A stretch of DNA of 64,000 nucleotides from a virus. Location of the stretch: IMG/VR virus record IMGVR_UViG_3300042486_001390, positions 26,565 to 90,564 of that record; one strand, given 5' to 3'. Below, one piece after another: positions 4,485-48,534 of the stretch. Below the pieces are notes generated by a model. The model searched no databases, was not told where the DNA came from, and saw only the letters and a program-made list of their open reading frames with translations. The position numbers and the translations under genes are program-made. The stretch's first letter is position 1, and the number at the start of each line of letters is the position of its first letter.

Positions 4485-4679
4485 TTAACTGTTAACAAAC
4501 TGTTTATCTAGAAACTGTTTATCTAGATCGGCAAGCTGTTTATCTAGCTTTGCCCGCTTGTCGAGCAAATACTCATAGACTAATGAACATTCTTCGATAT
4601 GTCCCGCTTTTCTTAAGTCAATTAGCTGGCACTGGACGCAAAATAGCTCATGGTATGCGATTCGCTCTTGGTCGGTCAT
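4485..4679 (-). CDS. Hypothetical protein with its own promoter
   Basis: 64 aa ORF directly downstream of the repeated promoter/RBS block. Confidence 0.6.
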   Translation of the reverse strand: MTDQERIAYHELFCVQCQLIDLRKAGHIEECSLVYEYLLDKRAKLDKQLADLDKQFLDKQFVNS

Positions 4680-14482: not shown

Positions 14483-14531
14483 TTTTTATTTGGTTGATGA
14501 TTGTTGACTGATAGCTGATAACTGATCGAAA

Positions 14532-15059
14532 CTAAGTAAATAATCTTGATGCAATACTAAGTAAATACACCCATTCTTCTTCAAGCATTAACATCATTCC
14601 AGAAGGATCGGGATTGGTAAGTAAGCAAAAGCTTACTTCGTCTATGCGATCACTGTCGTAGAATAACTCAATATCAGTATTTGGAAATACTGTCATAAAG
14701 CCAAATTTAAACTTGGCATTTTGACGATTTTCGCAGGTTAGTGTAGCTGAATGACTTGGATTCTCCCACGGAATACGATCTCTAAAGCTTTGATAAGTTA
14801 TTTTTAGTTTCCAGTCAATAACTGAGGGAAAGTCTTCTTTAAAATGTTCTTCCTTTACCCATTTAGCAATTTCGTCGATTATCCATTCTTGATCTTTTTG
14901 GATGAAGTAGTGAACGCCTTCTGAATATCGAAACGGGAATAACTTTGTTTCGTACCAGTTTAACTTGAACCCTTGCGGGTCTGAGTCAATTTTAGGGAAT
15001 TGCCCTATATCCATCATTGTCATGGTTTTTACTCCTAAATAAATTGTTTTTACTGACAA
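14532..15059 (-). CDS. DUF6876-like protein (likely start ~15023)
   Basis: YSEGVHYF...WIIDEIA; paralog of 18219..18626. Confidence 0.6.
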   Translation of the reverse strand: MSVKTIYLGVKTMTMMDIGQFPKIDSDPQGFKLNWYETKLFPFRYSEGVHYFIQKDQEWIIDEIAKWVKEEHFKEDFPSVIDWKLKITYQSFRDRIPWENPSHSATLTCENRQNAKFKFGFMTVFPNTDIELFYDSDRIDEVSFCLLTNPDPSGMMLMLEEEWVYLLSIASRLFT

Positions 15060-15281
15060 CTAATGATTGAGCAGATAATTTTCTAGTTCTTCTTCCGTGT
15101 AATTACATACAGGACGGTAATTTAATTCTTTATGGCAAAGATCGTAAAATTCAGCTTTACTGCCTGCTTTTTCCCATATCCAATGAATCATCTCACCGTC
15201 AATTCCTTGATTAATTGCCCACATATCCGCTTCAATTTTCTCAGATTCATCTTTCCAGTTAGAATTTTGTTGCTGTGTCAT
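15060..15281 (-). CDS. Hypothetical protein
   Basis: 73 aa ORF. Confidence 0.55.
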   Translation of the reverse strand: MTQQQNSNWKDESEKIEADMWAINQGIDGEMIHWIWEKAGSKAEFYDLCHKELNYRPVCNYTEEELENYLLNH

Positions 15282-15333
15282 GATACTTAACTCTTAGTGG
15301 TTTTTACTGACAACTGATAACTGACAACTGATA

Positions 15334-16650
15334 CTATTTTTTGAGAATGAGTTTAGGCTTTTTGCTAAACTCAACTGGTAGGTTTTTTTGCTGGCAGACA
15401 GTCCGGCAATCTGTCCATCTTTTACCGACCTTAGCAAGATAGGAGTCTTGGTTCCACTCCACCTTGTACCCTGCTTTTTCGCAGGCTGTCTTATAAGGAA
15501 ATTGAGATTCCTTCTGTCGAGCAGTAATCTGCTCTTCTCTAGCCTTTTCTAAGGCTTCTAGCTCGTTTTTGCGAACCTTAAAGGCTATGGCTTCGATTAC
15601 TGCTCGATGCAGTTCGGTAGCATCTTTCGGAAAGGATTCATAGCCATTTCTTAAATCGCGGCTACGGACTACTACCCGTCTTTCTTCGCCACTCGTAAGC
15701 CTTATTTGAATCCCTAGAGATAGGGATTCTTCGACAAGTTGGGGGAATTTAGCCCCAAAATCTTCAATCAATTTTTGATTTTCCGAAACTTCCGAAACTT
15801 TAGGAGCAGGTTCGGGTTCGGAAGCCGCTTCTACTTCTACTACTTTAGGATTTTCTATATCCCATTTTTTTCTGGTCCAATAACCAGAATAATGGTTTAA
15901 TAATACCCACTCTTTTTCTGATCTGGGTTTTGGAGGATCGGTTAACTGTTTGGCTTCCCCGCTGGGAAGCTGGTAGTTTACGACCCGAACGGTCACATAA
16001 CCGCCATGGGATCTCGATCCCATTCCGTCAGATGAAGGGGTATCTGACCCCTCGGAATAGAACCTTTCGGTTCTTTCATTGATTATTATGCCGTGTGTCA
16101 CGGCATAATAATCGCTATTTTCATAACGGTCGTATTTTTTTAACCTGTCTTTGATTGACAGGTAGTTGCCCCACTCTTTTTCCCGCGCTTCTTCCCGCGC
16201 TTCTACGGCTCTTTTTTCCGCTTTTTCTCTTTCGGCTTGGCCGGCAATCCAAGCCTCTTTCGCTTTCTTAGAAGCCTCTTTAGAAGCCTCTAAAGAGTCC
16301 AGATAATTAATGATTATCTGGTTGATTTCATCTTCTTCGAAACCTACTGAGTAAGTTAGGGAATTGAGATCAATTCCCCAAGCACCTGCCCACAGACTTC
16401 CGTCTGTAGTCATTTCCTCCTCGCTCGGTAAATATAAACCAGCGTAATCGCCGGTTAGTTGAGCCATTTCTGCCGTAACAGGAATCTCTGCCCAACTGGC
16501 AGTAGGCAAAGGGACGAGGCGGTCTTCAAACCCGTCATTGTACCAGAAGCACTCCCCTTCTCCTTGTACCGCGATCACTTTGCTTTCAAACAACAGACCT
16601 CCGTCCTCAGTGTCAAAGGGGATGTATGCGACGGTGATTTGAGATTTCAT
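15334..16650 (-). CDS. Hypothetical protein with its own promoter
   Basis: 438 aa, charged helical segments, somewhat higher GC. Confidence 0.75.
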   Translation of the reverse strand: MKSQITVAYIPFDTEDGGLLFESKVIAVQGEGECFWYNDGFEDRLVPLPTASWAEIPVTAEMAQLTGDYAGLYLPSEEEMTTDGSLWAGAWGIDLNSLTYSVGFEEDEINQIIINYLDSLEASKEASKKAKEAWIAGQAEREKAEKRAVEAREEAREKEWGNYLSIKDRLKKYDRYENSDYYAVTHGIIINERTERFYSEGSDTPSSDGMGSRSHGGYVTVRVVNYQLPSGEAKQLTDPPKPRSEKEWVLLNHYSGYWTRKKWDIENPKVVEVEAASEPEPAPKVSEVSENQKLIEDFGAKFPQLVEESLSLGIQIRLTSGEERRVVVRSRDLRNGYESFPKDATELHRAVIEAIAFKVRKNELEALEKAREEQITARQKESQFPYKTACEKAGYKVEWNQDSYLAKVGKRWTDCRTVCQQKNLPVEFSKKPKLILKK

Positions 16651-16750
16651 AACTTTGTCCTCTTGTGTTTTGCTTACTCTCTTATCTTATGACATTCTCC
16701 CAATAAAGTCAAGTGGGTGGGAGAATCTTTTTTGAGCAGATGTACTACTT
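16651..16750 (-). promoter_or_regulatory. Sigma70 promoter with TTCTCCCA/TGGGAGAA operator
   Basis: TTGACT-N17-TAAGAT; inverted repeat at 16694-16726. Confidence 0.8.
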
Positions 16751-16865
16751 ATTAATCCCAAATAGTTGATAATGATAACTGATAACCTTAATCTTCTATG
16801 CGCCAATCTGCATTTGCTACAGCATCATCTTATTAGGTTTCACCGTTGAGTACTGATTGGACAAC

Positions 16866-17132
16866 CTACCCCTTTATCTGTTTTACACACAAATATCCTC
16901 TATTTCCGTCAGAACGACGGAAATTCAATTCGGTAAATGTTCCACACCTCCAAGATGGAAGCAATAATACTTTTGGGTTTTCGTGTCCTTGTGATGTAAG
17001 GTAGTGATTAGCTTTGTGGAGTGTTTGACCTACTCCAAACACTGCCATTCCGATTAAGGTAGCAATCAAAAGATACGATGCGTTCTCTAGCCTTGCAATT
17101 GTTCCTAGTATTTTTCTGGATTCCTCGTTCAT
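16866..17132 (-). CDS. Small membrane protein (start MNEES at 17132)
   Basis: One hydrophobic helix; its GAGG RBS lies inside the hammerhead. Confidence 0.6.
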   Translation of the reverse strand: MNEESRKILGTIARLENASYLLIATLIGMAVFGVGQTLHKANHYLTSQGHENPKVLLLPSWRCGTFTELNFRRSDGNRGYLCVKQIKG

Positions 17133-17200
17133 GCTATCCTCATCAGTGCCTAGAATTGAGCCGCTAGGCATACGGGAAAGGTTCCCGTTTCGGATCGGCT
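17133..17200 (-). ncRNA. Type II hammerhead ribozyme
   Basis: Minus strand AGCCG ATCC GAAA C GGGAA-CCT-TTCCC GTA TGCCTAG-CGGCTCAATT-CTAGGCA CTGATGA GGAT: all core nucleotides, three stems, and a loop-I/5' flank pseudoknot. Confidence 0.92.
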
Positions 17201-17585
17201 AGGGCTTTTGTAAAAACAAACAGCCTAAAACATTTGAGGGGTTAGACTCATCCCGGACGATTGCACCGGGGGCAAGGCAGTCCGTCCGTCCTTGTTTACT
17301 AGCGGCCGCCGCCACTAGCCCAGAGACAATGTAGAAAGTTTCCCCGTCTGCATCTGGTAGCCCCTCAATATCCCCGTAAATAACGGTTTCTACTGGGATA
17401 CCGTCAATGGGTTCTGCGGGTTCGTTGGACATTTTAACTCGCGGGAGAATCCCCGATGCGGGAATTTCCTTAAGAATCACAATCTTCTCTTTGTTTCCCA
17501 GAAACTGTTTCTTTGCATCTTGGGTGATGCCAGCTTCTTTGTTTAATATGGTGATAGTGTGAGGGGTTGCGTTGACAATAGCCAT
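17199..17585 (-). CDS. Conserved phage protein (N[A/L]TPH family)
   Basis: MAIVNATPHTITI...YIVSGLVA...VRDE; AGGAG RBS before 17585. Confidence 0.7.
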   Translation of the reverse strand: MAIVNATPHTITILNKEAGITQDAKKQFLGNKEKIVILKEIPASGILPRVKMSNEPAEPIDGIPVETVIYGDIEGLPDADGETFYIVSGLVAAAASKQGRTDCLAPGAIVRDESNPSNVLGCLFLQKP

Positions 17586-17640
17586 GGTTTTTACTCCTAA
17601 ATAATTGTTAGCTGACAACTGATAACTGATAACTAATTTA

Positions 17641-18168
17641 TTAATCACAAACTACCCGAAAACCAATATTACGCCAGCGACATTTTTCAAAATAGTAACT
17701 GAGTTGTGCCGCACAACATTCATAGGAGCAGGTATCGAATCCGCCCCCACGGGGAACGTTTTGACACCATTCCCAGACGTTGCCGTGCATATCGTACAAT
17801 CCCCAATTGTTAGGTAATTTCTGACCCACAGGATGAGTTATTAATCCAGAATTATCTTCGTACCAAGCGTAATCTTTTAGCTGATCGAAATCATTACCAA
17901 AGCTAAATAGGGTTTCTGTACCAGCGCGACAAGCATATTCCCATTCTGAATTTGTAGGTAGGCGATAGTTTTTCCCTGTTATTCGTCTCAATTTCTGGTA
18001 AAAAGCTATAGCGTCGTCATAACTAACTTGTTCTACTGGATTTTGGGGTTTGTGCATAAAATAAGAGGGGTTGTTTCCCATTACCTCTTGATATTGTTCT
18101 TGAGTTATTGGATATTTCCCAATTTTAAAGGTTACGTTCGGAATCTCTATCATTTCAATCTCAATCAT
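17641..18168 (-). CDS. Second FGE-sulfatase/CLec-fold protein
   Basis: RLPTNSEWEYACRAGT, GLYDMHGNVWEWC, RGG...IGFRVVCD. Confidence 0.9.
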   Translation of the reverse strand: MIEIEMIEIPNVTFKIGKYPITQEQYQEVMGNNPSYFMHKPQNPVEQVSYDDAIAFYQKLRRITGKNYRLPTNSEWEYACRAGTETLFSFGNDFDQLKDYAWYEDNSGLITHPVGQKLPNNWGLYDMHGNVWEWCQNVPRGGGFDTCSYECCAAQLSYYFEKCRWRNIGFRVVCD

Positions 18169-18218
18169 TTTTTTGGCTCCTAAATAATTTGTTTTTACTG
18201 ATAACTGACAACTGATAA

Positions 18219-18554
18219 CTAATACTCGGAGGATAGCAATAGAATACCGTCACACAACCAAAGCGTGACCTCCGAAAAAGGAAACTCGGTAAATGGGATC
18301 TGCTGAGTTATGACAGATTCATTGTCTTGTTCGCAGGTAAGGACTGCGGATTTATCGGAGTTAACTATTAACATCCAGAACTGAATCTGGCTTGAATCAA
18401 GTTTTTTTTGCCATGACGCAATTGCATCAAGTAACCAATAGGCTTTACCATTTTCGGCCACATATTTTACACCATCGGTGTACTCAAACGGGTAATTTTT
18501 ATTACTGTAGTAATTTTCCGTGCCATGAAAATTACTAAGATTTTCTTTGTTCAT
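18219..18554 (-). CDS. DUF6876-family protein
   Basis: FHGTENYY...YTDGVKYVA...AYWLLDAIASWQ...LLLSSEY. Confidence 0.75.
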   Translation of the reverse strand: MNKENLSNFHGTENYYSNKNYPFEYTDGVKYVAENGKAYWLLDAIASWQKKLDSSQIQFWMLIVNSDKSAVLTCEQDNESVITQQIPFTEFPFSEVTLWLCDGILLLSSEY

Positions 18555-18610
18555 GATTTTGACTCCTAATAGGTTGCTAATAACTGATAGCTGATAACTG
18601 ATAACTGGTA

Positions 18611-19211: not shown

Positions 19212-19415
19212 ATGGTACTAAAAAACAGAGTCAAAGAATTTACACAGTCTAGAGGTATCACAATCTATAAATTCATTCAACAAACAGGGATTGCGATGTC
19301 CACGGGATACAAACTATCTCAGAATCCTAATCACTTACCGTCTATCACAGTCTTACAGGCAATCTGTAACAGATACGAGATACAGCCTAACGAAATTGTC
19401 TATTGGATTGATTGA
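19212..19415 (+). CDS. XRE/Cro-like HTH regulator
   Basis: 67 aa, RGITIYKF..TGIAMSTGYKL...LQAIC; divergent from the early operon. Confidence 0.85.
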   Translation: MVLKNRVKEFTQSRGITIYKFIQQTGIAMSTGYKLSQNPNHLPSITVLQAICNRYEIQPNEIVYWID

Positions 19416-19434: not shown

Positions 19435-19507
19435 GCGGGGTGAGTGAAATGGTTTCCACATAGGCCTCATAAGCCTAAAACACTAGGTTCGACTCCTAGA
19501 CCCCACA
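19435..19507 (+). tRNA. tRNA with CAT anticodon (elongator Met or Ile2), atypical
   Basis: Acceptor GCGGGGT/ACCCCAC (C2.A71 mismatch), anticodon arm TAGGC-CTCATAA-GCCTA, T arm CTAGG-TTCGACT-CCTAG, upstream TGnTATACT; no encoded CCA. Confidence 0.8.
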
Positions 19508-47667: not shown

Positions 47668-48534
47668 CTAAACTATCCCTGTAGCCCACACTCTCATTAA
47701 TATTGATTCGTTCCCCATTTTTGCGACACACTTCCAGTAAGGATTATTAGAGCCATCACGATCAACTGCTGTATTTCGATATGTTCCCCCCACAGAAAGA
47801 TTTAAAGAAGATTTTAGAACATTTGGGATATATCCAACGGCTTTATTAGGAGCTACATTATCTCTTAAATAAAATTCTGTTGTATTTGCGCCTGGCGTAG
47901 CGGTTTGACAAGAGACAGGGTAATTGGCAATAGGATCTGGAGTTGTTGCTCCTGGGAACACAAAGTTTTGCCTATCATTCACTCCCAATGATGGACGGCC
48001 GGCCGCTCTTGACTCCAAGCTCGGTCCGTCCGTCCATAAAAAATACGCATTCTGAACAAAAGCCGATTGAGAAAACAAAGGGTCTTTTAGCCATCCGCAA
48101 CTAAAAAAGTGGTGCGCACCACTATTATTATCAACGAAAATACTTAAACTGTGCGAATTTAAAACTGCCCAACAATAAGATAAAGAACGGTCAAAAATAC
48201 TACCAAACAAGTCAAGACAGTCTATTCCACAATATTGGGCATCGGCATCCAGCGTCGTCGAGAAGTTTCCCATGTCCTTACTTATTCCAATACGGTTAAA
48301 TCTAAATTTTGACGCAGTTGCAGGCAAACTTAGTGATTCAAAGCTAACTGGTAAAATTAAATTAAATGTAGTAGAATTTGCGAAAGCGCAAGTTTGTCCA
48401 AAAAAACCATTTATCCAGTTAGCACATTGAGTGCTTGTAAATCCCTGCGACTCCGGGGCCCAATCTAGATTATTAGTTGTCCAGCCATAATAAGAATTGC
48501 CGGCGTTGTCATTATTAATTAAAGGTAAGTTCAT
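47668..48534 (-). CDS. Putative tail/receptor-binding protein
   Basis: 288 aa, rich in N/S/T/W, within the tail-tip cluster. Confidence 0.5.
   Translation of the reverse strand: MNLPLINNDNAGNSYYGWTTNNLDWAPESQGFTSTQCANWINGFFGQTCAFANSTTFNLILPVSFESLSLPATASKFRFNRIGISKDMGNFSTTLDADAQYCGIDCLDLFGSIFDRSLSYCWAVLNSHSLSIFVDNNSGAHHFFSCGWLKDPLFSQSAFVQNAYFLWTDGPSLESRAAGRPSLGVNDRQNFVFPGATTPDPIANYPVSCQTATPGANTTEFYLRDNVAPNKAVGYIPNVLKSSLNLSVGGTYRNTAVDRDGSNNPYWKCVAKMGNESILMRVWATGIV

Follow-up and report, generated by a model that had tools for sequence, protein, structure and literature searches.

A type II hammerhead ribozyme, encoded on the minus strand of a phage genome, probably cuts the phage transcript between an upstream gene and a small membrane-protein gene. 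Judged by every sequence criterion that defines the class, the locus is a genuine type II hammerhead. The window analysed here, a stretch of 64,000 nucleotides to which all coordinates given without a contig name refer, comprises bases 26565-90564 of a 90,564-bp IMG/VR virus record (completeness 100% according to CheckV). The sequencing runs containing this stretch are all lake or freshwater metagenomes, and the ribonucleotide reductase of the record is 45% identical to its counterpart in Microcystis phage Ma-LMM01; we infer an uncultured freshwater phage as the source, and its host is probably a cyanobacterium. The ribozyme is present in 22 further IMG/VR contigs, found via both flanking proteins, making 23 with the window, and variation was counted over 14 distinct haplotypes with full flanks and 65 ribozyme columns, the 5' tail included.

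The complete motif occupies 17136-17195 of the minus strand, with a full catalytic core and stems I, II and III of 7, 4 and 7 bp. Read in the direction of transcription, the stop codon TAG of the upstream gene (17201-17199) leads directly into a 5' tail, AGCCG (17196-17200), whose first two bases are the AG of that stop and which, as a candidate pseudoknot strand, complements the first five bases of loop I. The 11.x strand of stem II (ATCC, 17192-17195), which pairs with GGAT at 17136-17139, is followed by the core bases G12, A13 and A14 (17189-17191), invariant in all 14 haplotypes, and by the stem III hairpin ACGGGAA/CCT/TTCCCGT (17172-17188), in which seven base pairs, including A15.1:U16.1 (A at 17188 with T at 17172), are closed by a 3-nt loop. 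The cleavage-site nucleotide at position 17 of the motif, which may be any base other than G, is an A (A17, 17171) in a GUA site, the predicted cut falling between 17171 and 17170. Beyond the cut lies the stem I hairpin (17147-17170), formed by TGCCTAG (17170-17164) and CTAGGCA (17153-17147) as 7 bp around a 10-nt loop I, CGGCTCAATT (17154-17163), likewise invariant in 14 of 14 haplotypes. The equally invariant core stretch CUGAUGA, C3 to A9 (CTGATGA in the DNA, 17140-17146), and the 10.x strand of stem II (GGAT, 17136-17139) complete the ribozyme, after which a spacer of three bases, AGC, separates stem II from the ATG of the small gene (17132-17130). A Shine-Dalgarno-like GAGG (17138-17141), made up of G8, A9, G10.1 and G10.2, stands 5 nt before this ATG. 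The original prediction of a complete type II hammerhead on this strand, filling the whole gap between the two genes, is thus borne out element by element, the stop codon overlapping the 5' tail and the start codon lying 3 nt after stem II.

[quoted passage not shown] According to passages in Perreault 2011 (PMC3088659), a mispair next to the core in stem I, II or III is grounds for rejecting a candidate; here all three core-adjacent pairs (U1.1:A2.1, G10.1:C11.1 and A15.1:U16.1) are of the standard kind. Energy minimisation yields the expected three-way junction, with an energy that is not unusual (z = -1.22), a value that is uninformative either way for so short a junction. Our own structural descriptor detected exactly one type II hammerhead in the entire 90,564-bp record, at this site. 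When the record was shuffled 400 times with dinucleotide composition preserved, the relaxed descriptor (stems of at least 4/3/4 bp) was matched in 12 of the shuffles and the strict one (at least 6/4/5 bp) in none.

Comparison with the Rfam model Hammerhead_II (RF02276), which the original prediction had put forward as a check, gave a divided answer, in that the alignment runs from end to end of the model (positions 1-66, all 66), but at 27.7 bits scores below the gathering threshold of 37 bits, which is a database cut-off and not part of the ribozyme's definition. The corresponding E-values are 0.0011 for a 351-nt query against all families and 6.5e-5 for the genome against this family alone, and the relatives, at 30-31 bits, likewise stay below the threshold. 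Because of this shortfall the default Rfam scan missed the hammerhead and reported only a tRNA. A large share of the consensus score derives from the 3' tail (AGCC...), which is absent in the phage ribozyme. A sensitive all-family scan of the whole 64-kb window, accepting E up to 1, revealed no other ribozyme, and omitted the hammerhead itself, whose E-value in that search exceeds 1. On the plus strand, 47834-47880 resembles the Rfam histone 3' UTR stem-loop at a score below threshold (24.6 bits, threshold 34, E = 0.016) and is probably a chance hairpin.

How strict this cut-off is can be gauged from a control set assembled from viral contigs by searching for motifs with a GGA/TCC stem II, in which 96 matching stretches yielded 35 distinct motifs passing the descriptor, 28 of them outside the present lineage, although these 28 include several related sets and are not fully independent. 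At 13 control loci with a complete type II motif by the descriptor, the gathering threshold was passed in five and failed in eight; by this measure the Rfam cut-off is a strict one for hammerheads of phages, and a candidate that stays below it need not be discarded. One unrelated viral contig (L084:384-5899) carries five type II hammerheads above the cut-off within 5.5 kb, together with a sixth complete motif below it (4547-4606).

The ribozyme is situated within a minus-strand block of small genes extending from about 19087 down to 13949. A gene for a Cro/C1-type HTH protein (19212-19415, plus strand) is divergent from this block, an arrangement that is the sole hint of the early timing assumed in the original prediction; a tRNA gene (19435-19507, 52 bits) comes after it. 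The upstream gene (17199-17585, minus strand) encodes a protein of 128 aa assigned to phrog_21731, and it is its stop codon that overlaps the ribozyme. The small downstream gene (16866-17132, minus strand) encodes 88 aa with one hydrophobic segment, residues 20-38 (maximum Kyte-Doolittle value over 19 residues, 1.76), for which searches of Pfam and PHROG returned no family match. Its relatives fall into 17 clusters, all at least 83% identical, and no distant ones were found.

The ribozyme and the small membrane-protein gene are present or absent together, as one insertable unit. Alignment with three relatives that are without it (L015, L007 and L019) delimits an insertion of about 450 nt (16748-17198, minus strand), consisting of the hammerhead, the small gene and, after it, about 120 nt that end in TTATCAG-type heptamer repeats. 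In these three contigs and in L024 the upstream gene is kept, the sequences diverge right after its stop codon, and both the ribozyme and the small gene are missing. Likewise, three near-complete relatives with the insertion each contain a single RF02276 match, at this locus, and two near-complete relatives without it contain none anywhere in the genome. The neighbouring genes of the block have a common leader of heptamer repeats and TTAGGAG, in place of which the small gene has the ribozyme. In most small genes of the block this leader consists of a run of ACTGATA/ACTGACA-type heptamers, about 10 nt, TTAGGAG and the ATG, and it can be seen at the minus-strand gene starts at 14496-14527, 15020-15075, 15274-15340, 17578-17631, 18165-18224 and 18551-18610; lists of open reading frames render it as spurious N-terminal extensions of the form 'ISYQLSVIS...LGVKTM'. 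Since a copy of the heptamers (16752-16786) ends the insertion, the repeats may serve as recombination joints between cassettes. In a further contig (L047:2560-2900) only the C-terminal half of the small gene is kept (residues 40-87, 92% identical), without the ribozyme and behind a standard heptamer-plus-AGGAG leader, its frame having an upstream stop; this is probably what was left when the 5' half of the cassette was deleted or replaced. Just before the gene at 15334-16650 there is a hairpin, TTCTCCCA...TGGGAGAA (16684-16740, minus strand), with a promoter-like TTGACT-17-TAAGAT across its loop, and this hairpin is kept both with the cassette and without it (L015, L007).

A search of the minus strand from 18122 to 16712 revealed no promoter-like site. 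With no space left for a promoter between them, the upstream gene, the ribozyme and the small gene would be transcribed into a single RNA, and the ribozyme would be made only within the transcript of the upstream gene, because no promoter-like site follows the leader of that gene and no spacer is left. In the mechanism that we favour, the ribozyme would fold during transcription and cut after A17 (17171|17170). The upstream message would then end in the stem III hairpin, 1 nt from its 3' end, with a 2',3'-cyclic phosphate, and the small-gene message would carry a 5'-hydroxyl and begin with the stem I hairpin, from which 14 free bases lead to the AUG. Both new ends would be protected by hairpins, to judge from general knowledge of bacterial RNA decay, such that the two messages could gain independent stability and translation. 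The ribozyme would thereby act as the leader of an inserted accessory gene that does not have the heptamer repeats and AGGAG found ahead of the neighbouring genes. Once the 5' fragment is released, the GAGG and the start codon of this particular genome would become free as well, which we regard as a side effect of the short spacer and not as a conserved function.

Alternatively, and along the lines of the original prediction, the main job of the ribozyme could be to gate translation, with the GAGG and the region before the AUG locked in the uncut RNA and exposed by the cut and the loss of the 5' fragment, so that processed RNA alone would yield the membrane protein. Engineered ribozyme switches do gate translation by masking and unmasking the ribosome-binding site, and in the window the arrangement is suggestive, as the GAGG is placed 5 nt before the ATG with two of its bases in stem II; in addition, the predicted probability of being unpaired rises after the cut from 0.31 to 0.46 for the GAGG and from 0.63 to 0.88 for the AUG region, and five of the 28 control hammerheads outside the lineage have an ATG 8-12 nt after G10.2. 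The predicted change in accessibility is, however, small, and the fold on which it is based ignores the pseudoknot. The arrangement is also not shared by most of the relatives. Three forms of the junction occur, namely GGAT-AGC-ATG with a 3-nt spacer (four of the 23 contigs, the window included), GGAT-ATG with a 0-nt spacer, ending exactly at the last base of stem II (two contigs), and a long form (17 contigs) with 73-80 nt between GGAT and the conserved ATGAACGAGG. Only in the 3-nt form is the GAGG well placed as a Shine-Dalgarno sequence; in the 0-nt form it is 2 nt from the ATG, too close by established spacing rules, and in the long form the start codon lies in an A/U-rich stretch without a GAGG. 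The proposal that the Shine-Dalgarno sequence resides inside the ribozyme core fits the window, but is not supported for the lineage, in which the start codon follows stem II within 0-3 nt in only 6 of the 23 contigs.

Since the ribozyme is kept in all three spacer forms, selection is on the ribozyme and not on the overlap, and since the ribozyme is intact throughout and one form ends exactly at stem II, the overlap results from the loss of the spacer in a minority of the contigs. In 20 of the 28 controls a distance of 22-57 nt separates the core from the next candidate start; in the other eight the start lies within 13 nt, three of these eight being doubtful TTG codons. Close apposition of start codon and ribozyme therefore recurs, but as a minority arrangement. 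A search of the literature on phage and cyanophage hammerheads and ribosome-binding sites, at the level of titles, found no natural hammerhead core serving as a ribosome-binding site. Gating as the principal function is, on this evidence, a doubtful reading.

The long spacer, found at L004:3442-3515 and at the corresponding place in 16 other contigs, has contents of its own. Its first hairpin, GGATAG...CTATCC, has an AAGGAG in its loop; the second is GGGAGG...CCTCCC, and the hexamer GAACAT is repeated in a variable number of copies, two to three. In the equilibrium fold of the long-spacer form GGAUAG pairs with the downstream CUAUCC and stem II is not formed, and in this model the GGAUAG/CUAUCC helix could hold the cleaved RNA in its product state or act as a rival to the active fold. 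The ATCC-TAAA-hairpin stretch of the long spacer resembles a decayed copy of the 5' half of the ribozyme. Inspected by eye as a type III hammerhead, the long spacer was rejected, as the stem III pairing fails and G12 would be a T.

The original prediction had also described the complement between loop I and the upstream AGCCG as the pseudoknot typical of type II hammerheads, and in this respect it was mistaken, because the typical pseudoknot joins loop I and the 3' tail, and the complement here is in the 5' tail. Perreault 2011 (PMC3088659), in the passages concerned, describes the type II pseudoknot as pairing loop I with the 3' tail after stem II, finds a pseudoknot in about 40% of all hammerheads, which makes it common but not defining, and identifies the 3'-tail pseudoknot as important for fast cleavage at low Mg2+. 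The phage ribozyme has no such contact of 4 bp or more, since in none of the three spacer forms, which differ in the sequence of their 3' tail, can loop I form more than 3 bp with that tail. Of the 28 controls, by comparison, 18 can form it with 4-7 bp, in sequences that differ by lineage, and the other ten are without a 3'-tail pseudoknot of at least 4 bp.

What the phage ribozyme has instead is the complement AGCCG/CGGCU between 5' tail and loop I, of 5 bp in ten and 4 bp in four of the 14 haplotypes, without covariation; among the 28 control hammerheads outside the lineage, a single one has 4 bp or more of complementarity to its 5' tail. The polarity of such a contact would, by our inference, be the mirror image of the usual one, with the 5' tail meeting the 5' half of the loop in place of the 3' tail meeting its 3' half, and the lengths of the linkers are comparable between the candidate contact and the usual 3'-tail contact. 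The invariance of loop I fits a tertiary role, but a complement of 5 bp is no more than modestly improbable by chance and nothing in it covaries; a 5'-tail pseudoknot is a possible, weakly supported contact. Taken further, the mirror-image pseudoknot could be combined with the genomic context into a more far-reaching proposal, in which the ribozyme would be the sole expression signal of a promoterless, leaderless and portable accessory-gene cassette, its cut freeing a membrane-protein message protected by a 5' hairpin and, in the short-spacer variants, unmasking the start. We consider this composite picture unlikely to be correct in full; were it true, the three spacer forms would constitute a natural deletion series for the coupling of ribozyme and translation.

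A different reading would deny useful self-cutting altogether and take the motif as a relic, or as a conserved pair of hairpins with another role, such as an RNase- or protein-binding site or a stabiliser. The sub-threshold Rfam score, the lack of a canonical tertiary pseudoknot, the lack of covariation and the stem mismatches tolerated by two relatives all speak for this. With 4 variable columns out of 65 the ribozyme is the most conserved 65-nt stretch of the locus, compared with 22-35 variable columns in each 65-nt window of the upstream gene (its last 240 nt) and 11-24 in each of the downstream gene (its first 264 nt). The core and the entire loop I do not vary among the 14 haplotypes; the last base of the 5' tail is G in ten and A in four (AGCCG/AGCCA), one base of stem III changes from G to A in a single haplotype, giving a mismatch, one base of loop III changes from C to T in three, and the outermost pair of stem II is lost (T to C) in one. 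In L018, excluded from the haplotype count since its downstream flank is cut, a G-C pair of stem III becomes G-U and the innermost pair of stem I is lost, and in one relative (L021/L069) an A.C mismatch interrupts stem III.

In no stem have both partners of a pair changed in a compensatory manner, the changes amounting to one G-C to G-U and three that break a pair, all single-sided; the fold accordingly rests on conservation and on the motif, and not on covariation, the relatives being too close. The search for diverged copies returned the same lineage only, in two half-fixed pattern scans of viral contigs (20 and 21 contigs) and in a metagenome scan, which gave four records, all of the long-spacer form with identical pseudoknot strands, one of them, equal in length to an IMG/VR contig already counted, being possibly the same DNA as that contig. 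Against the relic or hairpin reading stands the invariance, in 14 of 14 haplotypes, of all 11 core positions that do not pair, at a locus where the flanking coding sequence varies at 26-45% of columns; CUGAUGA and GAAA would be unnecessary for hairpins alone. Neither the low score nor the missing 3'-tail pseudoknot sets the phage ribozyme apart, as eight of the 13 control loci and ten of the 28 control motifs, respectively, share these features. A relic or a pair of hairpins is thus an improbable explanation.

It is hardly conceivable that the motif arose by chance or reflects coding conservation of an N-terminal extension from the ATG at 17171, which shares the reading frame of the gene in the two short-spacer forms (3 nt and 0 nt), hence the versions of 99-110 aa reported by gene callers, but which in the 17 long-form contigs opens a different frame that stops after 33 codons, while the stretch is far more conserved than the true coding sequence on both sides and strict matches are absent from all 400 shuffles. 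The supposition that the first 13 codons of the open reading frame 16866-17171 are ribozyme and not protein is upheld by this frame break, by the position of the predicted cut inside the ATG concerned (A|TG) and by the conservation of the protein, which begins at MNEES.

Assembled metatranscriptome contigs from four runs, compared with the region 16300-18300, include pieces (X21) covering 16664-17133 and 17289-17566, and a contig of a relative less than 90% alike (X23) whose match ends at 17203. No contig bridges 17134-17202; with a depth of 2-4 and population variants that break contigs, these assemblies are uninformative on cleavage, strand and expression.

The self-cutting between two genes that we favour has precedents. 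Passages in Perreault 2011 (PMC3088659) report that hammerheads flank single genes in prophages and propose a role in mRNA processing, and PMC8782182 describes in vivo cleavage, in Desulfovibrio vulgaris, by type II hammerheads that lie near phage genes. The phage ribozyme shares with bacterial and prophage type II hammerheads (PMC3088659; RF02276) the catalytic core, the loop-closed stems I and III and the open stem II, and with the RF02276 consensus a 7-bp stem I beginning UGCC...GGCA; it likewise lies between phage genes, directly before a small gene. It differs in its score, below the Rfam cut-off, in a stem II of 4 bp, and in having the 4-5 bp 5'-tail complement in place of the 3'-tail pseudoknot of at least 4 bp seen in 18 of the 28 controls. 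With the clustered hammerheads of prophages and phages (passages in Perreault 2011; contig L084) it presumably has in common the division of a multi-gene message into single-gene pieces, whereas here a single copy per genome is tied to one insertable gene and has no spacer on either side, with the stop codon overlapping the 5' tail and the start codon 3 nt from stem II.

Synthetic biology offers another comparison. In RiboJ-type insulators and aptazymes, cleavage produces a message with a fixed 5' end, where a hairpin precedes the ribosome-binding site, and the form found in the window similarly has a ribosome-binding site that is partly paired in the uncut RNA. The phage ribozyme is, in contrast to these parts, natural, of type II topology and devoid of a ligand-sensing domain, and its overlap with the ribosome-binding site is restricted to a minority of variants.

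The class, its phage context and the proposed role in processing have been in print since 2011, and in these respects the locus is a clean and fairly ordinary example. Particular to it are the single copy associated with a presence/absence gene, the missing spacers, the three spacer variants and the possible 5'-tail pseudoknot. What hammerheads do in bacteria and phages is nevertheless still largely a matter of inference, and the locus constitutes a compact test case, with one ribozyme per genome fixed to a gene that is present or absent as a unit. Given spacer lengths of 0, 3 and about 74 nt, both the effect of cleavage on downstream expression and the replacement of a 3'-tail by a 5'-tail pseudoknot become testable. 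Ultimately, the locus adds one lineage, that of lake phages with probably cyanobacterial hosts, to a well-populated class that the Rfam cut-off often misses.
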